From Patescibacteria group bacterium (GTDB lineage: Bacteria; Patescibacteriota; Microgenomatia; Levybacterales; UBA12049), in the NCBI GenBank assembly GCA_035510535.1, contig DATKGY010000051.1, positions 6,882 through 70,881 of the forward strand: a stretch of DNA of 64,000 nt. Direction: 5' to 3'. The translations under genes and the position numbers were made by a program. Shown here piece by piece: positions 4,786 to 23,705 of the stretch. The notes under the pieces were generated by a model. The model worked only from the letters and a program-made list of their open reading frames with translations. It ran no database searches and was not told where the DNA came from. Positions within the stretch are counted from its first letter, which is position 1, and the number at the start of each line of letters is the position of its first letter.

Positions 4786-4789
4786 TTGC

Positions 4790-5776: not shown

Positions 5777-5827
5777 GAGGATACGTCCGATTGAATGTAT
5801 ACTCTCTAGGTATTATAATATCAATAT

Positions 5828-7911: not shown

Positions 7912-9002
7912 AAATCGTAATCACCGGCGGACATTTATCACCGGCCTTAGCAGTTATAGAAAAGCTTGGAAACAGCGAAATTTATTATATTGGTAGAAAA
8001 CATAGCTTTGAAGGAGATAGCGCGACTTCTCTGGAATATGAAGAGATTGTAAAACTTCGCGTTCCTTTCTATTCAATCAATGCGGCCAGATTGCAAAGAA
8101 GATTTACTAAGCACACTATTCCATCTCTGACAAAATTCCCGGTGGGGTTTTTCCAGTCGTTAAAAATCCTAAGGCAAATTAAGCCGGATATTGTTCTAGG
8201 ATTTGGTGGTTATATTTCTTTGCCGGTAATTTTGGCGGCTTTCCTTCTTAGAATACCAATCGTCATTCATGAACAAACTTTGGAAGCCGGATTTGCCAAC
8301 AAAATAGAAGCTAAATTTGCTCAAAAAATTTGTATTTCATGGCAGTCATCGGAACAGTATTTTCCTAAACAAAAAACTGTTTTGACCGGAAATCCGTTAA
8401 GAGGAGTAGTTCTAAACGCAAAACCCTTTAGAGAAGAAACGGGTCTGCCCAAAATTTATATTACTGGGGGAAGCAGCGGGTCGCACGCAATAAATCTGCT
8501 CGTGGAAAAATCTTTGAAAGAGCTTTTGGAAAAATTTACTGTCGTTCATCAAACAGGAGATGCGAGAAGACATGCCGATTTCGAAAGACTGCAATCGGCA
8601 GTAAATAAACTTGATTCCCAGCTTGCCAAAAATTATCATTCACAAAGATTTTTTTCTCCCGAGGATACAGCGAATAATTTAAGCAGGTCTAATTTAGTGG
8701 TTGGTAGGGCGGGATTAAATACCGTGACAGAATTAATTTATTTTAAAACACCGGCTTTTTTAATTCCGTTACCCTTTTCCCAAAGAAATGAGCAATTAAA
8801 AAACGCCCTGTTCTTAAAAGGGTTGGGGCTGGGAGAAATTGGCCTACAAAACGAATTAACTCCGGAAATTTTTGTGGCAAAAATTTTAGCGATGCTTAAA
8901 AATTTAGAAAAGTATCGCCTGGAACAGAATGTTTTAGTTCCCGAAGCGGCCCAAAATATAGTTAAGGTGCTTAAAGATGTTGCGACAAAAAAGACTGCTT
9001 AA
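7908..9002 (+). CDS. murG: Lipid II synthase MurG (UDP-GlcNAc:lipid I GlcNAc transferase)
   Basis: GT28 fold. N-terminal ITGGHLSPALAV and C-terminal ITGGSSGSH motifs. dcw position. Confidence 0.85.
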   Translation: MKIVITGGHLSPALAVIEKLGNSEIYYIGRKHSFEGDSATSLEYEEIVKLRVPFYSINAARLQRRFTKHTIPSLTKFPVGFFQSLKILRQIKPDIVLGFGGYISLPVILAAFLLRIPIVIHEQTLEAGFANKIEAKFAQKICISWQSSEQYFPKQKTVLTGNPLRGVVLNAKPFREETGLPKIYITGGSSGSHAINLLVEKSLKELLEKFTVVHQTGDARRHADFERLQSAVNKLDSQLAKNYHSQRFFSPEDTANNLSRSNLVVGRAGLNTVTELIYFKTPAFLIPLPFSQRNEQLKNALFLKGLGLGEIGLQNELTPEIFVAKILAMLKNLEKYRLEQNVLVPEAAQNIVKVLKDVATKKTA

Positions 9003-9387
9003 AAAAGAAAAACTCAGGGTTAAAATGAAATTAGTCTTTGTTGTCGTCATTCTTTTATTAATAGCAACTATCGGACTGGAGTATTTCTATTTCAATTTCG
9101 TCAAAGCCTCAGTCATTAGCCCTTTGGCAAAAAGTAAGATATCTAATCAAACTAATTTAGAAAATGAACTGACTCAGAGAAGAATTCTTTTTACCAGTGT
9201 TACAGCCAGTTCGGATGGTTCGTTCGCCATAACTCTTTTGGATGGGGGAGAGGTAATTTTATCCTCAAAAAAAGATATTGGGAGCCAATTATCCTCTTTA
9301 CAACTGATCCTATCTAGTCTTACAATAGAAGGAAAGAAGCTGAGAATTTTAGATTTCAGGTTTGATAATCCAGTTGTTTCGTTTTAA
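8977..9387 (+). CDS. Small FtsQ-like bitopic division protein. The start may be 9025.
   Basis: Basic N-terminal tail, one TM helix (LVFVVVILLLIATIGL), short extracytoplasmic domain. The call rests only on its position between murG and ftsA. Confidence 0.4.
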   Translation: MLRQKRLLKKEKLRVKMKLVFVVVILLLIATIGLEYFYFNFVKASVISPLAKSKISNQTNLENELTQRRILFTSVTASSDGSFAITLLDGGEVILSSKKDIGSQLSSLQLILSSLTIEGKKLRILDFRFDNPVVSF

Positions 9388-10685
9388 TGCATATGAGTGA
9401 AGGAAAAATAGTTGTAGGTATAGATATCGGAACTTCCAAAATCGTGACTCTGATTGCCAAAGTTGATGAAGATGTTAATGTTTTGGGCGTTTCCGAATCT
9501 ATGGCAAACGGAATCAGAAAAGGACAGATAGTTGACATTGATGAGGCAGTTTTGTCTATTAATAATTCTTTAGAGGCTGCGGAAAGAATGGCTGGATATT
9601 CGGCTTCGCACATCGTTGCTTCAATTGGCGGCAGTCACATTGAATCGCAAAATTCACGGGGAGTGGTGGCAGTTGCGCATCCCGAAGGGGAAATAACGCC
9701 AAATGATTTAACCCGTGTGATTGATGCGGCCAGAGCCGTTTCCCTGCCTTCCAGCCGCGAAATAATTCACGTTTTGCCTAGGAGTTACATTGTTGACGGA
9801 CAGGAAGGAATAAAAGACCCGATCGGCATGACCGGAGTCAGATTGGAAGTTGATACGCACATCATTTCCGCTAACAGCACCTCAATTAAAAATATGGAAA
9901 AAGCTTTCTCGGAAGTCGGCGTGGATTTAGATGCGGTGGTTTTTAGCGGTTATGCCAGTTCTTTAGCGGTGTTATCGGATACAGAAAAAGAGCTGGGTGT
10001 CGTCTTGGTTGACATCGGAGCGGGAACCACAGACCTGTCCATTTATATTGACGGATCGGTCGCTTACTCTTCGGTAATTCCAATCGGCGCCAGGCATATT
10101 ACCAACGACTTGGCGATTGGCCTAAGAATTTCTCTTGAATCGGCGGAAAAAATAAAACTTTTCCTTTCAAATCCTACTAAAAAACAATTCAAACTTGAAG
10201 AAGAGGAAGCAGAAGAAAAACCCGAAAAATCCTCAAGCGACGAAATAGATTTAAGTGGCTTGGCGTTAGCTGAGGAACTGCGAAAAGTTTCCAAAAAAAC
10301 TTTAGTTGATGGTATTATCCGGCCAAGACTAAACGAATTGTTCACTATGATTGGTATTGAAATAAAAAAGAGCGGATTCGGTGGTCAGACGCCATCGGGG
10401 GTAGTAATTACCGGTGGGGGAGCTAAAACAGTTGGTATAACCGATGCGGCGAAACGTACACTGGCGATGCCGGTAAGAGTCGCGATTCCTACCAATGTCA
10501 AAGGGATAATCGATGAAATTGGCGAACCGTCATTTGCAACAGTGATTGGCTTAGCAAAATACGGCGGGACAATTGAAATTGTCTCTTCACTGCCGTTTGG
10601 TTTTACTATGCCATCAATTCCTTTTAAATTAAACAGCAAAATCTTTACAAAAGCTCTAGCGTTTTTCAAATCCTTCCTGCCCTAA
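9387..10685 (+). CDS. ftsA: Cell division protein FtsA
   Basis: Actin-fold motifs VGIDIGTSKI and VDIGAGTTDLSIY. Lies directly upstream of ftsZ. Confidence 0.85.
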   Translation: MHMSEGKIVVGIDIGTSKIVTLIAKVDEDVNVLGVSESMANGIRKGQIVDIDEAVLSINNSLEAAERMAGYSASHIVASIGGSHIESQNSRGVVAVAHPEGEITPNDLTRVIDAARAVSLPSSREIIHVLPRSYIVDGQEGIKDPIGMTGVRLEVDTHIISANSTSIKNMEKAFSEVGVDLDAVVFSGYASSLAVLSDTEKELGVVLVDIGAGTTDLSIYIDGSVAYSSVIPIGARHITNDLAIGLRISLESAEKIKLFLSNPTKKQFKLEEEEAEEKPEKSSSDEIDLSGLALAEELRKVSKKTLVDGIIRPRLNELFTMIGIEIKKSGFGGQTPSGVVITGGGAKTVGITDAAKRTLAMPVRVAIPTNVKGIIDEIGEPSFATVIGLAKYGGTIEIVSSLPFGFTMPSIPFKLNSKIFTKALAFFKSFLP

Positions 10686-10737
10686 ATGTGACTTGCAAAA
10701 TCACTTTTTATTTGCTAGTATGCCCATATAATTCGTT

Positions 10738-11859
10738 ATGTTAATAAAACCGCAAACAACTAATTTTGCCAAAATAAGAGTGGCGGGAATTGGAGGCGGT
10801 GGAAGCAATGCTTTGAATTCTATGATTTCTCAAAGCACAATTGCAGGAGTAGATTTTATCGCCATTAATACCGATGCCCAGTCGCTTCTCTTAAACCAGG
10901 CAGCCACTAAAATGCAAATCGGTGAAGATTTAACTAAGGGTTTGGGTTCGGGCGGAAATCCGGAAATTGGAAAGCAAGCAGCAGAAGAATCTTACGAAAA
11001 AGTCAAAGAAATGTTGGAGGGGACAGACATGCTCTTCTTGGCCGCGGGATTGGGCGGGGGGACAGGTTCGGGGGCAACTCCTGTAATTGCCAAAGCGGCT
11101 AAAGAAGTCGGAGCGCTAACGGTTGCAGTAGTCACAAAACCATTTGCGTTTGAAGGCACAAGGAGAATGGTTACCGCAGAGGACGCGATAGAAGAAATAA
11201 AGGATAAAGTTGATACTTTAATTGTTATCCCCAACCAAAGAATACTAGATGTAGTTGATAAAAAATTGTCTCTTTTGGAAGCGTTTAAAGTTGCCGATTC
11301 GGTTTTAACGCAGGGCGTGCAGGGTATTTCGGATTTAATTACCCTGCCGGGTTTAATTAATGTTGATTTTGCCGACGTTAAAACAATTATGGCAAACGCG
11401 GGTTCGGCTTTGATGGGCATTGGTACTGGAGTTGGGGAAAACAGGGCCCAAGCCGCCGCCAGAGCCGCAGTCGCATCGCCTCTTTTGGAGATCTCTATGA
11501 ATGGAGCTAGAGGAGTTTTGTTCAACATTATCGGCGGACCCGATTTAACCATGAACGAGGTTGACGAAGCGGCAAAAATTATTGCCTCGGAAGCGGATCC
11601 GGACGCTAACATCATTTTTGGCGCCACGATTGACGAAACCATGCATGACCAGCTCAAGATCACAGTAATTGCCACCGGTTTTGATTCAACCAGGCAAACG
11701 CTAAAAGAATTCATGACACCAACTATTAACCGGGTAATGGAACAATCTCAATCATCAAGCCCAGTAAATAATATTGAACCGCCGGTACCAAGCGAACCGC
11801 CGGTTGAAGAAGAAGACGACACCTGGGACATTCCCGCTTTTTTGAGGCAAAAGAACTAA
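10738..11859 (+). CDS. ftsZ: Cell division GTPase FtsZ
   Basis: GIGGGGSNA and [12 protein letters not shown] tubulin signature. C-terminal conserved peptide [11 protein letters not shown]. Confidence 0.95.
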
Positions 11860-11884
11860 AACTCTAGCTTCATATTTTTAATAG

Positions 11885-11905
11885 AGCACCTTCGGGTGCT
11901 TTTTT
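11885..11905 (+). terminator. Rho-independent terminator after ftsZ
   Basis: agcacc-ttcg-ggtgct hairpin followed by a T5 run. Confidence 0.7.
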
Positions 11906-12035
11906 ATTACTTAAAAGTACTACGGGAGTAGGCATAAAGTTCGTTGATATTAATGGGATGTAGGGTTATATATATCAGTGAAGTTTAGGCATAAAAATAG
12001 TGGAATTTATCGGATTTTTATAGTATAATAAATTC

Positions 12036-12059
12036 AATAAATCCACTGTTTACTCCCCT
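12036..12059 (+). repeat. 24-nt direct repeat, copy 1 (aataaatccactgtttactcccct), in the integrase 5-prime leader
   Basis: Matches 13077-13100 at 23 of 24 positions. Its 3-prime part forms the hairpin tactccc/gggagta that contains the integrase SD. Confidence 0.8.
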
Positions 12060-12070
12060 AGAAAGGGAGT

Positions 12071-13081
12071 ATGAAAATAGACGAAAAAGATTTCCTCTCA
12101 TTTATCACAATTAAGAAGAATTTAGCTAATCAAAGCGTTAGGCATTGTAGAATACGCCTTAGAGTCATTGTTAAGTGGCTAGACGGCAGGGAATTGACTA
12201 AACAGCTTGTTGAACAGTTCTTCATGGAGTTAAAAAACAAAGGCCAAAGAAATAACTCTTTAAATACATATTATTTTGTCTTTAGACAAATACTTGATTA
12301 CTTCAGAGACAGGGGAATCCAAGTAGATTTCTTAGATGGTTTCTCGTCATTTAAAAAAGAGAAGCCGGATATAGTTATTCTATCCATAGAAGAAATAGAA
12401 AAATTAATTAACACCTCGCTTACATATGGAAAGCTGCAGGGGAAAGATTGTACATTTCTAAATATTAGATATGGAATATTAACCATGTTCATTGCGTATA
12501 CGGGTTGTAGATTCTCTGAGGCGTCAAAACTAAAAATCAAAAATCTAGATTTAAGCGAAGGAAAGGCAACGTTTATTGACACTAAAACAAACGAGAATAG
12601 AACAGTATATTTCACAGATCCTTTAATTACCAATTTAAAAGAGTTAATTCTAGGTAGGAAAATTGATGATTTAGTGTTCAGAAATTCTCAAGAGAATGAA
12701 ATAAATCCCCAAGACTTCTCAACAGATATAAAAAGACGAGCTAAAAAAGCGGGTATTATTAAGAGAATGTATCCACACGTTTTAAGGCATAGTTATATAA
12801 CGCACATGCTAGAAGCGGGCGTGCCAATTACTGAAGTTGCTACGCTTGTTGGACATAAAGACATTCAAACAACTTATTCAACCTATATGCATCTTGCGGA
12901 TCAAACATTAAGGAAAGCATCAATGAGAAATCCACTGATTATAAAAAATGTAAATCCGGTTGAAATATTGAAGTCAATTAGAGAAGCAATTGAAAATTTC
13001 CATGTTGATAATGATTCTAGGTTTTTCTATGATTTTAGGGATAAAGGAAATGAGATAGAGTTTAAGTTACTAGTTAAATAA
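12071..13081 (+). CDS. Tyrosine-type site-specific recombinase/integrase
   Basis: C-terminal catalytic region HVLRHSYITHMLEAG...LVGHKDIQTTYSTYMH (HxxR ... H ... Y). N-terminal SAM-like core-binding domain. Confidence 0.9.
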   Translation: MKIDEKDFLSFITIKKNLANQSVRHCRIRLRVIVKWLDGRELTKQLVEQFFMELKNKGQRNNSLNTYYFVFRQILDYFRDRGIQVDFLDGFSSFKKEKPDIVILSIEEIEKLINTSLTYGKLQGKDCTFLNIRYGILTMFIAYTGCRFSEASKLKIKNLDLSEGKATFIDTKTNENRTVYFTDPLITNLKELILGRKIDDLVFRNSQENEINPQDFSTDIKRRAKKAGIIKRMYPHVLRHSYITHMLEAGVPITEVATLVGHKDIQTTYSTYMHLADQTLRKASMRNPLIIKNVNPVEILKSIREAIENFHVDNDSRFFYDFRDKGNEIEFKLLVK

Positions 13082-13100
13082 ATCCATTGTTTACTCCCCT
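13077..13100 (+). repeat. 24-nt direct repeat, copy 2 (aataaatccattgtttactcccct), overlapping the integrase stop codon
   Basis: 23 of 24 identity to 12036-12059. Confidence 0.8.
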
Positions 13101-13105
13101 CGTTG

Positions 13106-13369
13106 CTATGAACTTTGTGTACCTCCTTCCATAAATGCTTTAAATACTTGTAATAGTTCGTGTTTGTTGCAATACCAACCATCGTTAAAGAAATTACAGA
13201 CGCAATCATGCACACATAACGCTTTGCCATATGACACTTTAAGATATGCCTTTTCAAAATCAACATGGCTAATGATTGAAGAAATTCTTCTTTTCTCTCC
13301 ACTAGAGGTATACATCTTCATCAGCCCGTTTTTAAAATACAGTTTCAATAATATTTTTGTCTTTTTCAT
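13106..13369 (-). CDS. Hypothetical small protein (87 aa)
   Basis: ORF only. It competes with an overlapping plus-strand ORF at 13164-13415. No recognisable motif. Confidence 0.25.
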   Translation of the reverse strand: MKKTKILLKLYFKNGLMKMYTSSGEKRRISSIISHVDFEKAYLKVSYGKALCVHDCVCNFFNDGWYCNKHELLQVFKAFMEGGTQSS

Positions 13370-13371
13370 AT

Positions 13372-13398
13372 TGTCCGATTTGTCCGATTTGTCAACTT
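13372..13398. repeat. Tandem 9-nt repeats tgtccgatt x2 plus a degenerate third (tgtcaactt)
   Basis: Read directly from the sequence. Intergenic. Confidence 0.7.
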
Positions 13399-13430
13399 TT
13401 ACTAACTATTCTTAAATTTCTTATATAAGA

Positions 13431-13470
13431 GTAAAAAACTTAGTTTTACTTAGTTTTTACTAGTTTTTAC
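13431..13470. repeat. Iteron-like array: one inverted plus three direct copies of tagttttTAC
   Basis: The sequence reads gtaaaaaact / tagttttact / tagtttttac / tagtttttac, contiguous and downstream of the minus-strand module. Confidence 0.7.
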
Positions 13471-13503
13471 ATGCTATGTAACATATATAACTAGAACATA
13501 TGT

Positions 13504-13785
13504 TTACTTATCTTCTAATAAGGATTCTTTAATTAGCTCTTCGTTATACTTATCGATTACCTGTGAACAGAGATCTGTCCAATCGTCTTTGGTATGGGTT
13601 TTGAAAAGGGGAATCCATGATTTTCCATTAAAATAACTTGGAGCAGTAACGAAGTCTTTTCCGGTTTTTTCATCTCGGAAGATTTTAAAGCCACGCAATT
13701 GATGGGTGTCAAAATCTATTGTTGCCCTTGCTTTAACTTTTGAATCGTTACTTGTTTTTGTAATATTAATATTAATTAGCTTCAT
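13504..13785 (-). CDS. SpoVG-like small nucleic-acid-binding protein (putative)
   Basis: 93 aa. VKARATIDFDTHQLRGFKIFRDEKTGKDFVTAPSY resembles the SpoVG core (A.A.I.D..F.V..I.V.....G.FV.MPS). Confidence 0.4.
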   Translation of the reverse strand: MKLININITKTSNDSKVKARATIDFDTHQLRGFKIFRDEKTGKDFVTAPSYFNGKSWIPLFKTHTKDDWTDLCSQVIDKYNEELIKESLLEDK

Positions 13786-13787
13786 GT

Positions 13788-14015
13788 TTATTCCTGATAT
13801 AGGCGACTCTTTACGTTCTTAATAGCTGAAAAATAATCTTGTGGGTTAACTTGAACTTTTCTTTTCCAATAAGCCTCAATCAGGCTTTCTAATTCTTTGC
13901 TTCTTTTGAAGAGAAATATTGTTTTGTTTGGATAAGTTTTATCTAAAGAGTCGATAGGAAAATAAAGATTTAAAAAAGCGGATAACGCTAGGTCTGATGT
14001 TTGATAGTGCTCCAT
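13788..14015 (-). CDS. DUF5659-like small protein
   Basis: 75 aa. The pattern SDLALSAFLNL...IFLFKRS...EAYW resembles the DUF5659 family common in CPR mobile elements. Assigned from memory, not from a search. Confidence 0.4.
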   Translation of the reverse strand: MEHYQTSDLALSAFLNLYFPIDSLDKTYPNKTIFLFKRSKELESLIEAYWKRKVQVNPQDYFSAIKNVKSRLYQE

Positions 14016-14102
14016 AATTAATAGAAGTATAAATTGTGCTGGTTAATAAAACATTCTGCTAAAGTATGGATTTTCGGAGAAAAACTAAGTTATTTGTCGA
14101 TA

Positions 14103-14909
14103 CTACAGGGGGTAGATTTGATTAAAATAGGCTTTTGTTTCATCCAATATTTTAGCGCATTCCATCCTAGTAGGAACATAGTCCTTGCCAAAATACGATG
14201 GGGTTTTGTCTATTAATGCATTGATTATTTCATCGATCTCTCCCCACGAATGTCTTTCTAGATCTTTCCATATGTAAATCTTTACGCCTAATGCAAATCT
14301 ATTAATATCAATTTTTTGAAGTTTTTTTCTTGGAAGATTTTTCAATACTGGTTCAATCTCTGGCTTCCAATGTTCTTTAAGGTATTGATAGACATTGTCA
14401 ATCTTAACGTCTTCAGATAAAACAATAGATGGATAATTATTCCTGTAATAAATACTGATACCTGCTTGCCACCATTCGATGTCGTCTTGTGTTGTAGCGT
14501 ACGATGGGGGGAAATGAAAAGAAATAGGTTCATAAGCGAAAGGTATAGGTAAAATATCTGTTAGAATTTTCATGCTAATAAACATCGACCATTCTTCGGA
14601 GATTTTATATTTTTGCAAAAAATTTCTCATAAGAGTCAACATCTTAGTAAAAGTTTTTTCGTCTACCTTTTTCCTTATATTTGTAAAAAAATTAGGATCG
14701 CTGCGGTCGTATGGAATTAGTTTGATTTCAAGGTCTTGTCTAATCTTGGAGAGTTCCTTAGATAGGGTTGGATGATAAGTTAAGATAAGGGCATAAGCAA
14801 ATATAGAAGGCTCAAGTGAATCTTCATGCCAATCAACAATCTCAAAAAGTTTTTTGTTAAAAATAAATGATTTTAAAATTTTTCCAATCTTCATATTAAT
14901 GCTGAGCAT
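14103..14909 (-). CDS. Hypothetical protein (268 aa), first gene of the minus-strand module
   Basis: Long ORF with host-like AT-rich codon usage and no motif recognised. The start could be the internal MKIGKIL. Confidence 0.5.
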   Translation of the reverse strand: MLSINMKIGKILKSFIFNKKLFEIVDWHEDSLEPSIFAYALILTYHPTLSKELSKIRQDLEIKLIPYDRSDPNFFTNIRKKVDEKTFTKMLTLMRNFLQKYKISEEWSMFISMKILTDILPIPFAYEPISFHFPPSYATTQDDIEWWQAGISIYYRNNYPSIVLSEDVKIDNVYQYLKEHWKPEIEPVLKNLPRKKLQKIDINRFALGVKIYIWKDLERHSWGEIDEIINALIDKTPSYFGKDYVPTRMECAKILDETKAYFNQIYPL

Positions 14910-14994
14910 ATTTTACTACTTCTTTTTTATACTGTCTATTTTGTTGAATTTAGTTGAGTTTTCCGAGACTTTAAAAAATAGAATAGTAAGCCTA

Positions 14995-15070
14995 TTGACG
15001 CAAATAATATTATTTACTAAGATTTATTTAGAGACCTTGCTTGGGCAAACCTGCGGGGTCTCTATTTTTT
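14995..15070 (+). promoter_or_regulatory. Candidate promoter (TTGACG-17-TAAGAT) followed at once by a strong hairpin plus T-run
   Basis: ttgacg 14995-15000 and taagat 15018-15023. Hairpin tagagacc 15029-15036 / ggtctcta 15057-15064, then T6 at 15065-15070. Confidence 0.4.
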
Positions 15071-15121
15071 GACTTCAATCAAGAATAAGAGTATAAAAAG
15101 TAAAGTAGTTATTTATTATTT

Positions 15122-15850
15122 GTGCCTAAATCAAAGAAGCATATAAAGAAAATAGATGAAGCTAAACCAGTAAATATTCTAGCGGATAAGCAATTGCTGG
15201 TGGTTATCGTAGTTGTATTAATAATATGTGTTCTGATTGGAATTAAGACAGTAAGTTCTTATGTATTAAGCTCTAATATAGCCCCAACTCCCACAATAGA
15301 TTTACCTATTCCAACTCCAACTCCGACTGATACTCCTACTCCAACTCCTGAAATCAAAATTACTAATGTTCCAATTGCAGATCCTGGTAGTAAAACAACA
15401 GATACTGCAGTTAGGCAAACTGGAAAATATACCTTCGAAGGAAACCTACCATGTGATGACAGAATGGGAGATGCATCAGAAATATATGCTGCACTTAATA
15501 ATTATAGGCAGGTTCATGGAGCAAGCTCTCTTGCATGGAATGATAAGCTAGCATCTGTAGCACAAATGAGAGTTGGTCAAATTACAGCAAATGGGGGGAG
15601 ATCAGATAGCCATGCTGGATTTATTACTTTTACAAACGATCAAAGCAACTATGCGAAAGTTGGATTTAGTGAATTAAGTGAAAATACGGGAGGAACTGGG
15701 AACTGTCCTTTGCTTGGAGTTCATGTCATTGAATGGTTATTTGCTAGAGATGCGCCACATAATAATGCCCAATTGGATAGATGGGATGCAGTAGGAATTG
15801 CTGAAGGTCAAAATAATGTTGTAGTGATTTTTGGAAGAAGCCCTTTGTAG
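15122..15850 (+). CDS. Membrane-anchored secreted CAP/SCP (PR-1-like) domain protein with a Pro/Thr linker
   Basis: GTG start. TM helix LLVVIVVVLIICVLIGI, linker PTPTIDLPIPTPTPTDTPTPTPE, then a CAP-like core (YRQVHGASSLAWNDKLASVAQ...HAG). Confidence 0.6.
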   Translation: MPKSKKHIKKIDEAKPVNILADKQLLVVIVVVLIICVLIGIKTVSSYVLSSNIAPTPTIDLPIPTPTPTDTPTPTPEIKITNVPIADPGSKTTDTAVRQTGKYTFEGNLPCDDRMGDASEIYAALNNYRQVHGASSLAWNDKLASVAQMRVGQITANGGRSDSHAGFITFTNDQSNYAKVGFSELSENTGGTGNCPLLGVHVIEWLFARDAPHNNAQLDRWDAVGIAEGQNNVVVIFGRSPL

Positions 15851-16018
15851 GGAATAACATAAATAAACGAAAAATATTATAAATTTTATATCCCAGAGTA
15901 AATCGCTTAGCCTCAAAACAATTTTAGGGTAGGGAGTTTAGCCTCAAATCTATGTCGTAATATAGATGTTGTGCGACATAGAGCATATTAATTATTTATG
16001 TGATATAATTTATTTAAT

Positions 16019-16912
16019 ATGCCAGGAAGAGGGAGACCAAGAAAAAATCCTATTCCTGCCCCACAAATTCAAGCTACCACACCGGTAGCTGCTACGGTTG
16101 TTGTTCAAGCACCACCAAAGAATGTTTTATTTTTTATTGACCAAACAGAAGCTGGTATCGGTAGAAGGGACATAGAGCTTGTTGAAAAAGTCTTAGATGG
16201 TAAATCGGGAGATTTATTATATCTAGTATTACAAACATACGGCGGTGATGTATATTCTGCCGTTAAAATTATGCGCATTCTGCAATTCAAATTTAAGGAG
16301 ATAAAAGTTATTATTCCTGATTTTGTTTACAGTTCTGGTACGATAATGGCATTAGGTGGAGATACGCTTTATTTCGATGTTGACGCATGCATTGGACCTT
16401 TGGATAAACCAATGGAGAATCCAAGAGATGGTTCTGATATCTCCTCACTGGATATTACAAATACTTTAACAAATATTGCTTCTACGATTGAGTCAATCGC
16501 AACTTCTTTTTATGGAAGCCTCAGGGTGGATAGCAAGATTAAGCTTTCTAAAATTGAAGCTGCAAAATTAGCTTATGAATCTGCTGTAAATATTGTTAAC
16601 CCAATTATAAATAAAATTGATCCGTACTTTTTACAAAGTGGATACAGGCAAACCCAAATCGGTTTAAGATACGCCGTAGATATGTTAGCTAGCAGAATGA
16701 AAAGGAATAATATTAAAGAGGCTGTCGATACCGCTCTTGATTTAGTTAATAAATACCCTGCTCATAGTTATGGCATTTATCGTGAAGAAGCAAAATATAG
16801 TTTAAATCTGGAAACAGAAAATTTAGAAACCCTAGCAGAATGGGGCACACTTAAAGTTAAGTTTGATACATTAAAGAAGTCTTCAAATGCAATTGAATTT
16901 ATGGTATTCTAA
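16019..16912 (+). CDS. SDH-family Clp-fold serine protease (S49/ClpP-like) with an N-terminal AT-hook
   Basis: LVLQTYGGDVYSAVKIMRIL...YSSGTIMALGGDTLYF...GPLD matches the serine-dehydrogenase-proteinase / SppA-ClpP fold pattern. The N-terminus GRGRPRKNP is an AT-hook motif. Confidence 0.6.
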   Translation: MPGRGRPRKNPIPAPQIQATTPVAATVVVQAPPKNVLFFIDQTEAGIGRRDIELVEKVLDGKSGDLLYLVLQTYGGDVYSAVKIMRILQFKFKEIKVIIPDFVYSSGTIMALGGDTLYFDVDACIGPLDKPMENPRDGSDISSLDITNTLTNIASTIESIATSFYGSLRVDSKIKLSKIEAAKLAYESAVNIVNPIINKIDPYFLQSGYRQTQIGLRYAVDMLASRMKRNNIKEAVDTALDLVNKYPAHSYGIYREEAKYSLNLETENLETLAEWGTLKVKFDTLKKSSNAIEFMVF

Positions 16913-17139
16913 TTACATGTTGAGTGGATATTTATATTTTAGCGATACTAACAAAAGGGATATTAAAACTGAGCCTAATAATATAAAAGTTACTGATATT
17001 TTAGAAGGCGGTCGAGAGATATTTTCTGATTGGATTGAAAAGGAAGCAACTAAAGTATTAGAGGCCAGGAAATCCTCCAAAGTTGAAAAGAGAAAATAAT
17101 CTACACTTGTTTTTCCAACATAAAAAGTCTATATTATCC

Positions 17140-17221
17140 TTAGGTGTTTTTAGTAGGAATTGAAGCTAGAAACAAGGGATGTCTTGGATAATCCCGCATG
17201 GCCTTGACAGATATCATTTAA
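17140..17221 (+). repeat. Decayed ftsZ-tail scar unit (copy D)
   Basis: About 60-65% identical by hand alignment over about 80 nt to the unit at 18391-18469. The tail part gat aat ccc gca tgg cct tga is a degraded DIPAF... sequence. Confidence 0.55.
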
Positions 17222-17239
17222 CTTTGCCATTATAAATAT

Positions 17240-18388
17240 ATGGAACCAAATACACCAAATAATGATTTAATTGCAAAAGCGAAAATTGATACCCTAGATA
17301 TTGTTTCTCCTCAAGAAAATGATAGTTTGGGTTCTACTGCTTGGAGAGAATACTTAAATAGCGGTTCTCTGGGAGATGTATGGTCTGTTCCTGAAGGAAG
17401 TCCTTATGCTAGGTTTCAAAAAAGTAGCACTATAGACTCCATAGATAAATGTGATAGCGTAATCAAACCACGATATAGCAAAGGCGAACAAACGAGTGAA
17501 AAAGGAATAGATACTTTAATAGCCACAGGTGTTTTAGATTCACATACTGCAATTGTTTTAGATTCTGGGCATGCTCATAGCGTAGCAATGGCAGTTAAAT
17601 TAGCAGAGCAGGGTTATCAACCCGTTGTGATGTTAAATGATGAAGTAACTTCAAATAGATCAAATTCTGCTGAACAAGGATTAGCAACTTTATTATATTT
17701 TGCTGAACAAGTGAAAATTTTAAAAGCACAAGGTAAAATTAAATCAGATTCTCCTCCAGTTTTTATTTTAGATTTTCATCGTAGCTCTAGTTTCGTGCCT
17801 CAAGATTTTCCAACTGGAGAAGAATTGAGTCAAGCTGGAATAGATAAGGTAGTGTATCTCAATGAAGGAGATCAAAGTGGCGAAATTAATGCCAACTATC
17901 AGTCTACTGATAGACTATCAAGGGATTTAAAGTCAATTGCTTCCAATTGGGAAAGTGAGGGTCTTAATATAACTTATACAGGGGTATCTCCTTGGGTGGG
18001 AGAGCGTAACGCTTTTTTCTCACAGGGTTTAGTTCGTGGATTAAGTCGTAGATTAAATATGGGCGGCGCTTATGTTAGTGATGGTTATGCTTTTGAATCC
18101 GGATTGTCATATTCCAATATGGATCCTGAGGTATATGGAAAGAAAGATGCTTTAGGAATTGCAATGCATCACAATAGAGAAAGGTTTATTTTTACTAGAG
18201 AGGGTAAGTTGGAGGTAATCAATGAAAGTGGAGTGGCAAGAGCTATGCAACCTGAGGAAATCGAACAATTTCAAGAAGCAATAAGAAAAGCATTGGAGCT
18301 TCATCCAGACAACTTACAGATGATGGACGTATCTAATAGATTATCACAAGCAATTCAACCGATTAGTTTAGAAAATAAAGATAAATAG
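17240..18388 (+). CDS. Hypothetical protein (382 aa)
   Basis: Long ORF lying between two ftsZ-tail scars. No motif recognised. Confidence 0.5.
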   Translation: MEPNTPNNDLIAKAKIDTLDIVSPQENDSLGSTAWREYLNSGSLGDVWSVPEGSPYARFQKSSTIDSIDKCDSVIKPRYSKGEQTSEKGIDTLIATGVLDSHTAIVLDSGHAHSVAMAVKLAEQGYQPVVMLNDEVTSNRSNSAEQGLATLLYFAEQVKILKAQGKIKSDSPPVFILDFHRSSSFVPQDFPTGEELSQAGIDKVVYLNEGDQSGEINANYQSTDRLSRDLKSIASNWESEGLNITYTGVSPWVGERNAFFSQGLVRGLSRRLNMGGAYVSDGYAFESGLSYSNMDPEVYGKKDALGIAMHHNRERFIFTREGKLEVINESGVARAMQPEEIEQFQEAIRKALELHPDNLQMMDVSNRLSQAIQPISLENKDK

Positions 18389-18390
18389 GT

Positions 18391-18469
18391 TTAGGCGTTT
18401 TTAATAAAAGTAGAAGTTAGAAAAGGGGATAGATAAGACATTCCCGCCTTCCTTAGACAAAAAAATTAG
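18391..18469 (+). repeat. ftsZ-tail scar unit (copy B). The tail proper is 18437-18469.
   Basis: gac att ccc gcc ttc ctt aga caa aaa aat tag encodes [10 protein letters not shown]. It is 25 of 33 nt identical to ftsZ 11827-11859 and all differences are synonymous. Confidence 0.85.
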
Positions 18470-18490
18470 ATAGTAGGCGAGGCTCGCCAC

Positions 18491-18523
18491 TGGCGGCCCG
18501 CATTTTTGCGACAAAAGAATTAA
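18491..18523 (+). repeat. ftsZ-tail scar (copy C)
   Basis: tgg cgg ccc gca ttt ttg cga caa aag aat taa encodes [10 protein letters not shown]. Confidence 0.85.
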
Positions 18524-18589
18524 GCTCTTTAAATTTCAGAATGACCTATAGTTGATTTTTGAGTCTTATAATGAGATAATTAAATTTAT

Positions 18590-19195
18590 ATGGAAAGCTT
18601 GGAATATTTACCAAAATTATATTTTATTAAATCAATTCCAAATGAGGAGTATGCATATTTAACACAATTTTTGACTTATGTTGTTCCTGCATTTACAAGC
18701 GAAGCTCCTTTATCTTTTGCTGTTCATCTTGGGGCTGCATTTGCTAAATCTGGTTTTAGCATGAGAAAGCTTGGCTTAGATTCGGGAGTAAGCCACTCGG
18801 AAATATCACGTTTATTAAGTAATAGTAAGATACCAAAATTAGCTACGGCAGCACGCATTATTGAGAGTCTAAACTTAAGTGATGCACAAGCATTTAAAAT
18901 AGTTGTAGATTCAATTCCCCTTGATGTAAAAAGTAATTCTCTTAGATCGGTTTTCGCAGACGCTGCGCCCCAGTTAAGAGGAAGCTTTAGAGAGCAACTA
19001 AAAGGATATAGGCAGGCAAGAGATTTATCAATACCGTTATTAGCTGCTAGGGCTAAAATCGATAGAGCATTTGTGTGGAGAGTAGAATCCGAAGGAAGAC
19101 CTCTTGGATTTATTACATTTGCTGCTTTAGTTTCTGCATTAGGCTTAAATCCTAAACAAGTTCGTGGTTGCCTAATTGCCGCCGCTAATCAATAA
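18590..19195 (+). CDS. Transcriptional regulator with two XRE-type helix-turn-helix domains
   Basis: Two HTH units: MRKLGLDSGVSHSEISRLLSNSKIPKLATAARIIESLNL and LKGYRQARDLSIPLLAARAKIDRAFVWRVESEGR. Confidence 0.6.
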   Translation: MESLEYLPKLYFIKSIPNEEYAYLTQFLTYVVPAFTSEAPLSFAVHLGAAFAKSGFSMRKLGLDSGVSHSEISRLLSNSKIPKLATAARIIESLNLSDAQAFKIVVDSIPLDVKSNSLRSVFADAAPQLRGSFREQLKGYRQARDLSIPLLAARAKIDRAFVWRVESEGRPLGFITFAALVSALGLNPKQVRGCLIAAANQ

Positions 19196-19239
19196 ATTAA
19201 GTTCGCTCAAATTCTTTCAGAACTTCGCTTCGGCTACGG

Positions 19240-19270
19240 CCTGCATTCATTCTTAAGGCAGAAGAATTAA
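19240..19270 (+). repeat. ftsZ-tail scar (copy E) carrying a 4-nt duplication
   Basis: cct gca ttc [attc] tta agg cag aag aat taa. Removing the duplicated attc restores PAFLRQKN*. As it stands the in-frame reading is FLRQKN*. Confidence 0.8.
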
Positions 19271-19294
19271 ATCCCAAATTTTCCACCCCATAGT

Positions 19295-19322
19295 TTGACT
19301 TTCAAGATTTTTGTGGTATAAT
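19295..19322 (+). promoter_or_regulatory. Near-consensus sigma70-type promoter (TTGACT-16-TGgTATAAT) facing the flp operon
   Basis: ttgact 19295-19300 and tataat 19317-19322 with an upstream TGn extended -10. Confidence 0.5.
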
Positions 19323-19630
19323 CCATGCTTAGTGACAAAATAAACCCGGACTAATTTGCTGTCCGGAGTTTTGTTCTGTTACTTAGTTTTAATTGCACTT
19401 TGACAAGTTGCGAAAAATATTTTCATCAGATGGTGACGCCTTGGACATTAAGCGATTAGTGTCTAGAGCGTCATCATCAGATGATCATAGTAGTTACAAA
19501 GAAAGGAGGGTACTCGACATATTGCATTTTCAAAAGAAAGTAGTATGAAGGGAGTATCTATAAGTTAGTACGGATTAGGTTCGGTTTCACGGTTGTTCAA
19601 TCACGCAAGAGAATAGGAGTGAGGACTACG

Positions 19631-19774
19631 ATGTTTCGTTTTTCATCCAAAGGACAAGGTCTCGCTGAATACGCACTCATTCTCGCTCTCGTCGCCATCG
19701 TGGCTGTCGTTGCACTGCTCTTTCTGAGCGGCGAAATCAAGTCAATCCTGAGCATCATCGGCAAGTCGCTCTAG
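19631..19774 (+). CDS. flp: Flp-family type IVb pilin (47 aa). Absent from the ORF track because of its size.
   Basis: My translation is MFRFSSKGQGLAEYALILALVAIVAVVALLFLSGEIKSILSIIGKSL. It has the Flp processing motif G-xxxx-EY followed by a hydrophobic helix. SD ggag lies about 10 nt upstream. Confidence 0.75.
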   Translation: MFRFSSKGQGLAEYALILALVAIVAVVALLFLSGEIKSILSIIGKSL

Positions 19775-19917
19775 CGCGTCGCACTCGTCACTTGCTTAAC
19801 TGCAAGCTTTATTTTGAGTCAAACGCAGTATGGAGGTGGATACCCACAAGGCTTAAAAGCCAGCGTCTCCCGTCAAGTAACCGAGTCATCGAAGACTCAC
19901 GAGTCAAGGAGGAAACC

Positions 19918-21195
19918 GTGTTTAGTGTTCGTCGATTTTTCGCTGTATTCGCATGTGCTGCACTTTTGGGTGTTAGCATATTTGCGATCACGGCCAGTCC
20001 TGTCGTTCATCAACAATCAGTAGCTGCGTGGTCCCAACCGGGATTCACCGCGGTCTACGACTGCGACGGCAATGTCATCACCACCGTTAATCTCGCCAAC
20101 GAAGGCCAAAACGCGAACTACGATTATCAATTGGCATGGGGACCGGTAGGGCTTACCAAGCAGAGTGATCTGAACGCTCTCAACTGGACGACCTATACCG
20201 GCGCACAAGGGAACAACCAACAGACCATCGCGGCTGGAACTGGAGTTCTCTACGTACGCTGGGTAGCTGATTACAACAGTTGGAACTCGGCAACTCCTAG
20301 CGCAGCTAGCAATTGCACGGCGCCGCCTGACCCGCCTGTCATCACGCCTGTCTGCATGACGACGCTTCAGAGCGACCATTCAGCTGACGACCCCGGCTAC
20401 ACGGAGTACAACTGGTACATCGTGCTTCCCGGCGTCGCGAACGACTACAACATGGACTATTCAACAAACGGAACCGACTGGGTTGGACCTGATGACTGGT
20501 CTGATCAAAACGATCCCATTGCTGGCGGCGGCTGGGGCGGACCTATGACTACAACCTCGTACCCGAACTTCGGGATCGACGGCCACGAGTTGTGGGTTCG
20601 CTGGTCTGCCTACAGTAGTGTGGTTATCGGTCCGGTCGTAAATCCATACCCAGTTACGGCAGCTGGTCGTTCCTGCGGCACTCCTACGCCTCCGGCTCCT
20701 CCTGTCGTAAAGTGCGGCGGAACGGTTTCGTTCAGCAATGTCCCCGACGGCTGGAAACTGATCATCGAACCTGACGTCCTTGTTACCTCTGGTTTCGATT
20801 CCATCAGCCTGGCCCCCGGCGACTACACTTACCAATGGCGAGATGCCGATAACAACGACATGGTTGGCGGCACCTTCACCATCGGCGTCTGTCCGACTCC
20901 GACTCCGACACCCGCACCTACGTGCGTTGTCTCTGTCAGAGCAGACACGGTTGTCCAAGTCACGCCCGCACCTTGCGCAACTCCGGTTGTCACACCGACT
21001 CCGAAATCGACTTCGACTCCGGTCGCTTCGACCTCTGTCAAGCCAAAGAAAACTCCGGCAACTACCAGTATCGCTGGCGGTTCAGATGAATCAGACTCCA
21101 ACAGCATCCCGCTGTTCCCTCTGTTCATCTGCCTGATTCTTGGCGGAATTGGTGTTGGGGTGACTCTCATGGTCCAAAGGCGAGCGGCCCATTGA
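19918..21195 (+). CDS. Secreted or surface protein with an internal repeat, Pro/Thr linkers and a C-terminal TM anchor
   Basis: The likely start is GTG 19918, 5 nt after AAGGAGG; the ORF-track start 19792 lacks an SD. N-terminal signal/anchor FFAVFACAALLGVSIFAITA. Repeated motif LYVRWVADYNSW / LWVRWSAYSS. CPTPTPTPAPTC linker. C-terminal LFICLILGGIGVGVTLMV-QRRAAH. Confidence 0.65.
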   Translation: MFSVRRFFAVFACAALLGVSIFAITASPVVHQQSVAAWSQPGFTAVYDCDGNVITTVNLANEGQNANYDYQLAWGPVGLTKQSDLNALNWTTYTGAQGNNQQTIAAGTGVLYVRWVADYNSWNSATPSAASNCTAPPDPPVITPVCMTTLQSDHSADDPGYTEYNWYIVLPGVANDYNMDYSTNGTDWVGPDDWSDQNDPIAGGGWGGPMTTTSYPNFGIDGHELWVRWSAYSSVVIGPVVNPYPVTAAGRSCGTPTPPAPPVVKCGGTVSFSNVPDGWKLIIEPDVLVTSGFDSISLAPGDYTYQWRDADNNDMVGGTFTIGVCPTPTPTPAPTCVVSVRADTVVQVTPAPCATPVVTPTPKSTSTPVASTSVKPKKTPATTSIAGGSDESDSNSIPLFPLFICLILGGIGVGVTLMVQRRAAH

Positions 21196-21485
21196 CCTGC
21201 TAAACTAGCCTGATCCACCTGGATTTAGACTAGCTCGTAGTGGAGAAGCTCAGCCATAGCTTGGTACAAAGGATCCATTTAGGATCTAACGCCAAAGCTT
21301 CTTGATGCTGAGCAACTCCGATTTGGAGAAAGAAAGGACTACTATGTTCAAAAAACAACCCGTTTCGGGATATCCAATCACAGCTAACGCTGAGAAAGGT
21401 CCCGAACCATTTTCGCAACGCACTCAAGTGTTAAAGGCACCGCAAGGTGATAGACTCTAAAGAGTATTTACTGCACGCGCAGTCT

Positions 21486-21554: not shown

Positions 21555-23705
21555 TTACTCTTTCGTAGGCTTAGAATATCTTTCTTTGGAGACGCGGATT
21601 ACCGTTTTTCTATTCTGGTTTTTACTCATAGGGAGTGGCAGAGTTTGCGCCAAAAACGGCGGGCAGGTAATACTATCTATTGAAAGTTTTGTTAAGATTT
21701 GATAATTTCCCAGAGCCAATAAATCTTCTTCTTTAAATCTTTCCCCTAATTCTTTAGCCAAATAGAAAGCGTCCCCGGCGCCGACTATGAATGAAATTAA
21801 GCTTCCGACATTACCAAAAATTGCCGCTCTGACATCTTCGGGAACTTGCGCCATATACTGATTTGCCATAATTAAATCTAAGTGATATTTTCTGGCCTCG
21901 GACAAAATTTTAATAAAGGAATTAGTAGCAAAATTTTGGAACTCGTCAACATACAGATAAAAATCCTTCCTTTGCTCTTCAGCTAAATCAACCCGATTCA
22001 TCGCCGCCAGTTGTAGTTTTGTAATTATCATCGCGCCCAAAAGTGAAGAATTATCTTCTCCTAATTTTCCCTGAGAAAGATTAAGCAGTACAATTTTTCC
22101 TTCGTTCATAATTTTTTCCAAATCAATGGTTGACTTAGGAGCGCCGATAATATTTCTAACAATATTAGAAGATATAAATTGACCAACCTTATTAAGAATA
22201 GGCGAAATAGATTCGCTCATTAACCGTGGCGTCATGGTTTCAAATTCATTCAGCCAGTAATTTTTTAAAACCGGATCGTTTAGCTTTGCGACAACTTTGT
22301 CCCGGTAACTTTTATCCGTTAATAAACCGGGAACTTCCAAAAAAGTCGAATCGGGAACTTCCAAAAGGGTCAAAATAGTATTTCTTAAAATATACTCAAG
22401 CCGTGGTCCCCAGGAATTTCCATAAAGTTTTTTAAAGATAGAAACAATACCGGAAGCAACTAGTTCTTTTTGCGTGTTCCCGACCTCAAGCGGATTAAGA
22501 TGAAAAGAGCTTGAAGAAGAATCTGACGGATCCAGATAAATTACGTCGTTAATCCGGTTTGACGGAATGTAATCCAAAATTATTTCTGTTAAGTCCCCAT
22601 GCGGATCAATTACCGCTACCCCTTCTCCATTTCTGATATCGTTGATCGCCATATTGGCGATGAGCGTGGATTTTCCGGCGCCGGTTTTCCCGATAATATA
22701 AGTATGTTTTCGTCTATCCTTTCCTTTGATGCCAAAATTCGTCAGTTTATTTTTAAATTCGGTATTAGCAAAAAAATTAATCTCCTGTTTTTCTGCGTCG
22801 CCCAAACCTTGAGCGATTGGTAAATTTTCCGGCGGTTCGGAAAAGATGGCTTTAGTCCAAGAAAGATTGTGAATTTTGGCCAGCTGTTCCGTCGGTAGGT
22901 GGTAAAGACTGGCAATTTCCGAAACATTTAAAACTTGATTTGACGGGATAAAAGACCTACTGCGCTTAATAAGTGCTCTTTCAAATCTGTCTTTTTGCCA
23001 AAGATGCGGGCGTCTTAAATAAAAGCTGTTGCCGATGGGATTATTAAAAATAGAAAATCCGTTGACAATATTAAAGAATAAACCCGGATTGTCACTTTTA
23101 ACTAAGATTCTTATACCGGTGCGGAAACCGTTTTGGCTGATTTTATCGGTAATAATTTTTTTATATTGATTAAGAGGGTTCTCTCTGTCCGGATCTGTGC
23201 TTTTAAGAATTGCCGTTTGGCCTTTTGTCTGCCAGCCGGTACCGATTGGTACCAGTAGGTATTGAATTACCGCTTTGTCATCTTTATCCAGTTTTGCCAA
23301 AATCCCTAAAATTGAGCTTAGCGGATCAACGTCCTTAAAATCTTTATAAGTTTTTATTGGGAACAAAGCTCCATGTTTTAATTTAAGCCTTCCTTCATAA
23401 AGTTCTCCCGGGGAACTTAAGATATCCGGTAAGTAGTCCTTATTTTTTGCAATTAGCGCTTTGGGGTATTGAGCGGTTAACTGACCTTCAATAAAAGTTT
23501 GGAATTTCTGCGGAATCACAATAAAAAAATGAGTTCTCTGCTCAAAGGTGGCAATCTCTAGGCTAATTGGTATCCCGCGCCTGTAAAAATAGACTATTTG
23601 ACGTTTTAAGTTAACCAGACTGGAGAGAAATTGCGTCATGGCTTCCGAAGTTTCCTCGGTATTTCTGGGTGTTTTAATTTCCAAAATAACTTTGTCGCTG
23701 TCCAT
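21555..23705 (-). CDS. FtsK/HerA/TraD-VirD4-superfamily P-loop ATPase (type IV coupling-protein-like), soluble
   Basis: Walker A IIGKTGAGKST and Walker B FYLYVDEFQNF. C-terminal ARKYHLDLIMANQY...GNVGSLISF resembles the TraD/TraG C-terminal domain. No TM helices seen at the N-terminus. Confidence 0.6.
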   Translation of the reverse strand: MDSDKVILEIKTPRNTEETSEAMTQFLSSLVNLKRQIVYFYRRGIPISLEIATFEQRTHFFIVIPQKFQTFIEGQLTAQYPKALIAKNKDYLPDILSSPGELYEGRLKLKHGALFPIKTYKDFKDVDPLSSILGILAKLDKDDKAVIQYLLVPIGTGWQTKGQTAILKSTDPDRENPLNQYKKIITDKISQNGFRTGIRILVKSDNPGLFFNIVNGFSIFNNPIGNSFYLRRPHLWQKDRFERALIKRSRSFIPSNQVLNVSEIASLYHLPTEQLAKIHNLSWTKAIFSEPPENLPIAQGLGDAEKQEINFFANTEFKNKLTNFGIKGKDRRKHTYIIGKTGAGKSTLIANMAINDIRNGEGVAVIDPHGDLTEIILDYIPSNRINDVIYLDPSDSSSSSFHLNPLEVGNTQKELVASGIVSIFKKLYGNSWGPRLEYILRNTILTLLEVPDSTFLEVPGLLTDKSYRDKVVAKLNDPVLKNYWLNEFETMTPRLMSESISPILNKVGQFISSNIVRNIIGAPKSTIDLEKIMNEGKIVLLNLSQGKLGEDNSSLLGAMIITKLQLAAMNRVDLAEEQRKDFYLYVDEFQNFATNSFIKILSEARKYHLDLIMANQYMAQVPEDVRAAIFGNVGSLISFIVGAGDAFYLAKELGERFKEEDLLALGNYQILTKLSIDSITCPPFLAQTLPLPMSKNQNRKTVIRVSKERYSKPTKE

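Follow-up and report, generated by a model that had tools for sequence, protein, structure and literature searches.

The window considered here is a stretch of 64,000 nucleotides from contig DATKGY010000051.1 of a Patescibacteria group bacterium (GenBank assembly GCA_035510535.1), in which the division gene ftsZ and the gene ileS are separated by about 12 kb of DNA containing a tyrosine integrase gene and several displaced copies of the 3′ end of ftsZ. The ftsZ gene (10738–11859, forward strand) is an open reading frame (ORF) of 373 aa with the Pfam domains Tubulin and FtsZ_C, and the FtsA gene (9387–10685) lies just upstream of it. In this report, we focus on the copies of the ftsZ end, on a 6,610-bp unit that is present in this strain and missing from otherwise identical ones, and on the integrase family to which the recombinase of this unit belongs, in view of the possibility that the region arose by integration into the codons for the C-terminal peptide of FtsZ.

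FtsZ-Tail Copies Downstream of ftsZ

A sequence-only reading of the window had listed five ftsZ-tail segments, here called copies A to E, and re-reading of the window returned exactly the same coordinates and sequences, all on the forward strand. Copy A (11827–11859; gac att ccc gct ttt ttg agg caa aag aac taa) is the live tail. Copy B (18437–18469) has an in-frame taa upstream, represents the right attachment (att) site, attR, and is the live end of ftsZ in element-less strains. Copy C (18491–18523), found by both the pattern and the tail profile described below, and copy E (19240–19270), which has a 4-nt ATTC duplication, are orphan tails without an element arm, and copy D (17135–17221), an internal dead att site, consists of a distal arm and core (17135–17199) followed by a decayed tail up to 17221, the segment listed in that reading being 17187–17221. 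The degenerate pattern CCNGCNTTYYTNMGNCARAARAAYTRR, with at most two mismatches, matches copies A, B, C and E only in the 64-kb window; in shuffled sequence, 0.01 matches are expected, and none of 100 shuffles reaches four. A tail profile built from the tails of other genomes only recovers the same four copies (A, E = 5.9e-7; C, E = 9.1e-6; B, E = 2.2e-5; E, E = 7.2e-4) and nothing else below E = 0.8 over the window, and near ileS, where the original host end might lie, it gives no further decayed tail below E = 10. The tail of copy D alone is unsupported by this profile (E = 13), and the fifth, decayed copy is confirmed not by its tail but by its conserved upstream element arm, as an "element arm plus tail" profile from other genomes matches 17135–17199 at E = 4e-10.

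The divergence of the copies at synonymous positions only, which had been noted from the window, holds for both pairs compared. Copies A and B differ at 8 of 33 nucleotides, all of them synonymous, and in 200,000 trials of random placement of eight substitutions the peptide was never kept; copies C and A differ at four positions over PAFLRQKN and the stop codon, again all synonymous (P ~0.001). None of copies B, C and E lies inside an ORF of at least 40 aa, so that the orphan tails are not parts of small genes, and an explanation of the tails as RNA elements was rejected, with nothing relevant in Rfam. Copy C stands in frame with the TAG stop of copy B (54 nt from start to start; window 18467–18523), and read-through of this stop would add a second tandem C-terminal peptide to FtsZ. 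Since the equivalent tail spacings are 47 nt in one related locus (L031) and 53 nt in another (L026), neither of them in frame, the in-frame spacing in the window is probably due to chance.

Occupied and Empty Forms of the Locus

The exact 373-aa FtsZ was looked up in public assemblies, and the conspecific contigs obtained are of two kinds, namely those with the integrase gene downstream of ftsZ, and those in which the body of ftsZ runs straight into the codons of copy B, followed by copy C, a helix-turn-helix (HTH) gene and copy E. The empty junction is present in four samples (L002, L004, L017 and L018). L002 corresponds to window 9977–11837 joined to 18437–20022 at 100% identity with an 11-nt overlap, GACATTCCCGC; L004 likewise has both flanks 100% identical to the window and an 11-nt overlap at this core, and direct reading of L017 and L018 showed the ftsZ-to-B junction. 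The attB junction sequence of the empty form contains …CACCTGGGACATTCCCGCCTTCCTTAGAC…. The left site, attL, is seen in at least six samples and attR in five, with each of the two junctions recurring in at least five independent assemblies, and in sample SRR8695230 an integrase contig and the empty junction occur together. Several conspecific contigs start exactly at the core, the pattern to be expected of an assembly graph that forks there.

The unit missing from the empty form spans 11838–18447 (forward strand; 6,610 bp), with a GC content of 30–36% as against ~45% in ftsZ. As the empty contigs join the body of ftsZ to copy B, copy A is attL and copy B is attR, and as the left flank of L002 ends at 11837 and its right flank starts at 18437 with the 11-nt overlap, the crossover falls within the core (attL core 11827–11837, forward strand, identical to 18437–18447). 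The identity of the flanks further indicates that the presence/absence event was recent and precise. Thus, the site-specific integration into the FtsZ C-terminal codons that had been proposed from the window alone is borne out by empty contigs from four samples, in which the flanks are identical and copy B serves as the live tail. Nor is the array fixed and syntenic, since relatives have ftsZ directly beside ileS. The last 22 nt of ftsZ in the occupied form (11838–11859, forward strand; t ttt ttg agg caa aag aac taa) are supplied by the element and are absent from the empty contigs, so that in this form the host does use an element-supplied FtsZ C-terminus, and the FtsZ protein is identical over its exact 373 aa in occupied and empty contigs. 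In the empty form, the A–D and D–B segments are missing together, as one A-to-B unit, which is consistent with a composite moving as one unit.

Core and Arms of the Attachment Sites

Across the whole family described below, the block common to attL and attR is T-Y-CCCRC. On either side of the core stand imperfect inverted half-sites (RGRAAT and ATTYCT), corresponding in ftsZ to the D/E-I and F-L codons. To judge from its sequence, with these half-sites around a 6–7-nt overlap, Y-CCCGC, the core looks like a standard tyrosine-recombinase site, in which the exact cleavage positions are putative. On the side of the integrase gene, the motif TAGCTTCA (11865–11872, forward strand) is inverted relative to the TGAAGCTA of the distal arm, and its position after the live tail is conserved in the window and in L026, L029, L031, L035, L125, L131 and L132. 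In L027 and L030, TGAAGCTA and TAGCTTCA have exchanged orientation in both arms at once, and in L047 the swap is seen in the distal arm only. An intrinsic terminator, AGAGCACC-ttcg-GGTGCTTT with a T-run (11883–11908, forward strand), belongs to the element DNA, and homologous AGCACC..GGTGCTTTTTT hairpins follow attL in L022, L026, L027, L030, L034, L037, L125 and L131. The distal element arm of attR lies at 18394–18436 (forward strand), and the arm-plus-tail profile matches 18394–18469 at E = 2e-7; the distal arm motifs are TTAGGTGTTTTTAGTAGG and TGAAGCTAGAAA. The arms of copies B and D are homologous over ~57 nt, and the arm of D hardly differs from those of attR in L026 and L050. These arm motifs may serve as binding sites.

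The Integrase and Its Family

The integrase ORF (12071–13081, forward strand) starts 211 nt after the ftsZ stop codon, as had been noted, and encodes a Xer-like tyrosine integrase of 336 aa without an arm-binding domain. The protein matches PF00589 with 114.6 bits (gathering cut-off 27.1; E = 5.6e-33), and its closest solved structure is XerD 1a0p (E = 9e-18, aligned over integrase residues 7–282), with R147, K172, H236-x-x-R239, H262 and Y272 aligned to the catalytic residues of XerD. The N-terminal SAM-like core-binding domain PF02899 scores 21.4 bits (cut-off 22.3), and the scores lie below the equivalog cut-offs of the NCBIfam Xer models (XerD, 120 of 329.6 bits; XerC, 107.7 of 335; XerA, 138.9 of 220). 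The gene is missing from the ftsZ-downstream locus of the empty contigs with 100% identical flanks. This integrase is likely the agent of integration, and would be expected to catalyze the strand exchange at the core. A direct repeat of 24–27 nt, AATAAATCCAYTGTTTACTCCCCT, at 12036–12059 and 13077–13100 brackets the ORF exactly; it has only two copies in the window (0 expected), and its upstream copy also occurs in L132. As a feature of the family this repeat was rejected, as it is not found around the integrase gene in eight related loci.

Loci of the integrase family were collected from a scan of species-representative genomes, which gave 23 loci labelled Levybacteria, Gottesmanbacteria, Daviesbacteria or only generically, and more were added from homologue look-ups. 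At E ≤ 1e-30, the family comprises at least 286 protein clusters with generic annotations only, and hundreds of proteins labelled "XerD" in the Candidate Phyla Radiation (CPR) are probably element integrases. Integrases beside ftsZ ends, which the sequence-only reading had suggested looking for in other genomes, proved to be the rule in this family: an FtsZ tail lies 103–380 nt from the integrase gene in 25 of the 26 full-length family loci (33–76% identity), and in the 26th the contig begins at the integrase gene itself. A full ftsZ is adjacent in 14 of the 23 loci of the first scan. In L131, a close relative with 94% identical FtsZ, a 75% identical integrase sits at the same place. Three layouts occur, with ftsZ and the integrase gene co-oriented, convergent, or with the integrase gene at the far end beside an orphan tail and ileS, and a second tail with the conserved distal arm lies 5.5–8.4 kb away in L023, L026, L027, L030, L033, L036, L131 and L133. 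One contig (L032 and L035) holds two integrase-bearing elements in tandem, with a hybrid site made of distal arm, tail and proximal arm between them, and in L047 and L050 integrase-less islands with an element-type arm lie between a live and an orphan tail. In element-less relatives (L058, L061, L068, L053, L059 and L060), ftsZ is directly beside ileS, and among relatives in a metagenome survey of FtsZ loci, ileS follows 40–340 nt after ftsZ in several, and unrelated genes lie between the two in others. Given the relatives with ftsZ directly before ileS, the window sequence from 11860 to ~23770 is accessory.

Several of the related loci provide observations of their own. In L132 (positions 1–8379; Logan SRR8426588), an element of 8.4 kb with a 76% identical integrase was assembled exactly from core to core, and its cargo includes a rolling-circle replication initiator (Phage_CRI), an AlwI-type restriction enzyme together with two methyltransferases, and a Shedu (SduA_C) protein; one other related element carries toxin-antitoxin genes. 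In L125 (IMG/VR uncultivated viral genome 3300027835_000014), positions 70–7385 hold two FtsZ tails and two different integrases in tandem (60% and 31% identical to that of the window), and in the 15.6 kb examined of this 34.7-kb contig, which is classed as viral, there is neither ftsZ nor any structural phage gene. Nine metagenome-assembled genomes (L022, L024, L025, L028, L030, L032, L033, L035 and L042) are titled "uncultured Gammaproteobacteria". Except in L025 and L032, their ftsZ is 60–78% and their ftsA 54–74% identical to those of the window, in a matching ftsA–ftsZ order, and none of these loci shows ileS. The titles appear to be mistaken.

Origin of the Region

We consider it very probable (roughly 87%) that the 12-kb ftsZ–ileS stretch is a composite island built up through tyrosine-recombinase integration, with the FtsZ C-terminal peptide codons as the target. 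The element now present would extend over 11838–18447 and encode the Xer-like integrase, and its attP would contain the core GACATTCCCGC, followed by synonymous codons for A-F-L-R-Q-K-N, a stop and the terminator. Recombination of attP with attB inside ftsZ would then produce attL (copy A), from which the host would translate the element-supplied codons, and at the same time attR (copy B), which would be the former host tail pushed 6.6 kb downstream. With the crossover in the shared core, integration would leave the FtsZ protein unchanged. The element itself would be composite, with copy D as the dead right end of its integrase-bearing part and the D-to-B stretch as an integrase-less segment travelling with that part, and copies C and E would be older tail relics flanking a 54-nt remnant and the HTH gene.

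The sequence-only reading went further and proposed that three or four related elements had integrated in succession. This is borne out in part only: copies D and B carry conserved element arms, and C and E are tail-only. The integrase-less segments between tail sites measure 1.25 kb with one gene (D–B), 54 nt (B–C) and 0.75 kb with the HTH gene (C–E). The tail of D is dead (DNPAWP and a stop), and D together with the joint loss of A–D and D–B fits a composite formed by accretion that now uses its outer sites only. By analogy with the integrase-less att-flanked segments of streptococci, the cis-mobilizable elements (CIMEs) and gene-free microCIMEs (PMC7563491), we read C and E as old att relics.

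Several results weigh against the proposed integration history, or at least narrow it. The circular attP junction (predicted …GGGGATAGATAAGACATTCCCGCTTTTTTGAGGCAAAAGAACTAAAACTCTAGC…) was found neither in 21 conspecific contigs nor in IMG/VR, so that current mobility is deduced from the polymorphism, and no recognisable replication, transfer or virion genes are present in the element according to Pfam, NCBIfam and PHROGs. Among the 80 closest FtsZ loci of JGI metagenomes, no close integrase homologue lies beside ftsZ, and the single weak match (L100) is 27% identical and ~2 kb from ftsZ; occupancy of the site is far from universal. In addition, the profile search gives no element arms at C and E, and the occurrence of the B–C doublet in integrase-less relatives leaves the number and order of past insertions uncertain, so that any order of events would be provisional.

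This last point leads to the alternative that C, E and the B–C doublet are not successive insertion scars, but an older feature of the ftsZ 3′ end, inherited or horizontally spread, which could be an ancient micro-remnant, a module carried on some elements, or a set of spare landing sites sparing the live gene; the window would then record one or two insertion events only. We regard this as a possibility to be taken seriously, albeit an unlikely one. The doublet consists of a tail, the palindrome GGCGAGGCTCGCC (18476–18488, forward strand, between B and C) and a second tail, and it aligns with the corresponding DNA of the integrase-less loci L049 and L048 as well as L031, L026 and L027; the same GGCGAGGCTCGCC motif follows the tail in L049, L048, L027 and L031, and C aligns with the second tails of L049, L048, L031 and L026. 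In L031, moreover, the element sits on the second tail and the live tail is untouched. As the doublet is common to integrase-less relatives, C is old and not simply the previous insertion, and the missing arms of C and E point the same way. However, C keeps the full peptide with its synonymous differences only, which would be unexpected for an old neutral relic, and the close relative L131 has no doublet. The HTH gene between C and E, without a homologue in the relatives examined, fits a foreign insert, and gene-free att-flanked micro-remnants are known products of accretion (PMC7563491).

The remaining explanations dispense with integration by the window recombinase, or with the array altogether. 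Homologous or slipped-strand deletion between the 11-nt repeats, with the integrase present by coincidence, would account for a short perfect repeat flanking the missing segment and for the lack of a circle junction, but it is very improbable in view of the integrase family beside FtsZ tails in many species, in three orientations and with arms on both sides, and of the recent and precise event recorded by the identical flanks; it also leaves the full synonymous tail and the terminator of the element unexplained. That the recombinase is a host housekeeping XerC/D-type resolvase, the tails being dif-like sites used by integrase-less elements of the kind of integrative mobile elements exploiting Xer (IMEX), is suggested by its best matches, which are XerD, XerA and XerC models and structures. 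This is hardly credible, since its scores fall far below the equivalog cut-offs, its GC content matches the island and not the host, and its absence at the locus from otherwise identical empty-site strains makes it accessory. Finally, the ends of many short contigs fall exactly on the core, as they might if a chimeric contig had been joined through a short repeat; yet both junctions are spanned in independent ENA, JGI and Logan assemblies at 100% identity to the window, and breaks at the core are expected from a mixture of occupied and empty forms, so that the chance of an assembly artefact is negligible.

A broader proposal can be added to the composite-island interpretation, namely that the FtsZ-peptide codons are a lineage-wide landing pad in Microgenomates, chosen for functional reasons ("addiction by gene end"), with orphan tails as safe sites. 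We consider this speculative and rather improbable. If it were true, the site would be used by deeply diverged integrase clades and by different kinds of elements, such as those with a rolling-circle Rep, defence islands and larger elements of the IMG/VR type. Imprecise loss, or excision via the decayed copy D, would cut short the peptide that binds FtsA, with death of the cell as the result, and hence the element would be stabilised by its own target, and orphan tails would act as safe secondary landing sites.

Cargo and Neighbouring Genes

Family elements have in common the integrase, the att arms and, in some of them, an 87-aa ORF, and nothing else. This ORF (13106–13369, reverse strand in the window) is the only other gene recurrent beside the family integrase; tblastn detects it at 38–42% identity beside the integrase gene in L027, L032, L033 and L035, and it has no Pfam, PHROG or PADLOC match. 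The further cargo (13504–17099) encodes a SpoVG-like protein (93 aa), a DUF5659 protein (75 aa), a 268-aa protein of unknown function, a secreted CAP-domain protein (242 aa), an SDH-type Clp-fold protease (297 aa) and a 70-aa ORF. Between copies D and B lies an ORF of 382 aa (17240–18388, forward strand) with no assigned function, which is missing in the empty contigs, and a promoter-like TTGACA-18-CATTAT with a TG (17204–17233) overlaps the decayed D tail and precedes it. Identity as a phage was rejected, with no structural PHROG match in the element or near the related IMG/VR integrases (L125, L126 and L040), and plasmid DNA gave no match to the element. A defence function of the cargo was likewise rejected, as PADLOC gave only HTH-type matches on the HTH protein. 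Contigs from three independent assemblies (L001/L005 and L006) all end at 14513–14515 beside a G6 run, and look-up of the exact 268-aa product of ORF 14103–14909 (reverse strand) found no record; the shared contig end near 14506–14515 may come from a homopolymer of variable length, or from heterogeneity among strains, within the element.

The HTH gene between copies C and E (18590–19195, forward strand) encodes a protein of 201 aa with two HTH domains (HTH_31 and HTH_3), for which no homologue was found in any related locus examined. Directly after copy E there is a promoter-like TTGACT-16-TATAAT with a TG (11/12; 19295–19322). The adjoining block at 19400–21300 has 50–58% GC against 32–40% in the genome, and encodes a 51-aa protein resembling Flp or class-III-signal pilins (19619–19774) and a 467-aa Pro/Thr-rich protein (19792–21195) with hydrophobic segments at its N- and C-terminus. 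Four independent contigs show this block joined without a break to the HTH gene and copy E, so that it is not chimeric; it has the appearance of DNA acquired from a foreign, high-GC donor. Directly upstream of ileS, outside the tail array, a coupling-protein ATPase of 716 aa resembling TraG/VirD4/TraD is encoded at 21555–23705 (reverse strand), and no close homologue of it lies between ftsZ and ileS in any relative examined.

Comparison with Known Systems

The closest parallel is provided by streptococci, in which elements that are integrative and conjugative (ICEs), elements that are integrative and mobilizable (IMEs), and CIMEs accrete at gene 3′ ends, as ICESt1 and ICESt3 do at fda and others at rpsI, rpmG and rplL (PMC7563491). 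In both cases, the target of a tyrosine integrase is a conserved protein gene, which is entered at its 3′ end and restored. The streptococcal CIMEs are integrase-less, att-flanked cargo segments of 1.2–13 kb, microCIMEs are gene-free, and the composites excise whole, between their outer sites (PMC7563491). Mapped on this scheme, A–D would correspond to an ICE or IME, D–B to a CIME, B–C to a micro-remnant and C–E to another CIME. In contrast to the streptococcal elements, the target here is ftsZ, the hosts are CPR Microgenomates, and the A–B unit lacks a relaxase, a coupling protein and a type IV secretion system, none of which is found in 11838–18447 with Pfam, NCBIfam and PHROGs. The B–C remnant measures 54 nt, compared with the 130–220 bp reported for streptococcal micro-remnants (PMC7563491), and the window integrase is at best only ~27% identical to integrases of the phage collection.

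The integrases associated with dusA and their genomic islands (Farrugia et al. 2015, PMC4482086) are likewise a dedicated family that uses one site in one conserved protein gene in many genomes, and their cargo is also highly diverse, with the integrase as the sole universal feature and an integration that may restore the gene. The dusA islands of Proteobacteria insert at the 5′ end of a gene that is not essential, and excision circles have been detected for them by polymerase chain reaction (PMC4482086); in the present case, insertion is at the 3′ end of a division gene that is essential, and no circle was observed. As with islands and prophages that occupy tRNA and tmRNA genes at their 3′ ends (Williams 2002, as cited in PMC12091111), attP brings a replacement 3′ end, displaced ends pile up downstream as direct repeats, and a very conserved target opens many hosts. 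Unlike there, the replacement end must preserve a peptide and not an RNA, and hence the copies diverge at synonymous positions only. The nearest relatives of the integrase in sequence and fold are XerC, XerD, XerA and the recombinases of the IMEX system, two-domain recombinases without an arm-binding domain; it differs from these in being an accessory gene encoded by an element, in failing the equivalog cut-offs and in having a coding-sequence target instead of dif.

With this system, the list of integration targets gains an essential cell-division gene, at the very peptide that tethers FtsZ to FtsA, and a gene end can be overwritten by an element while the protein stays the same. The ftsZ–ileS junction emerges as a variable region, with restriction-modification, Shedu and toxin-antitoxin cargo in related genomes. 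For Microgenomates, there is now an integrase/attB/attP system with precise limits, of which occupied and empty alleles occur in nature; it could seed integration vectors for uncultivated or barely tractable CPR bacteria. Searches of the open-access full-text literature, including the TIGER paper and its supplements, gave no mention of ftsZ as an integration or att target. Judged against that literature, what is new is the use of ftsZ as a target, at the peptide that binds FtsA, the occurrence in CPR Microgenomates as hosts, and the integrase family, and the mechanism itself is the familiar one of elements entering gene 3′ ends, as in tRNA and tmRNA islands, at fda with ICESt1 and ICESt3, and at rpsI and rpmG.

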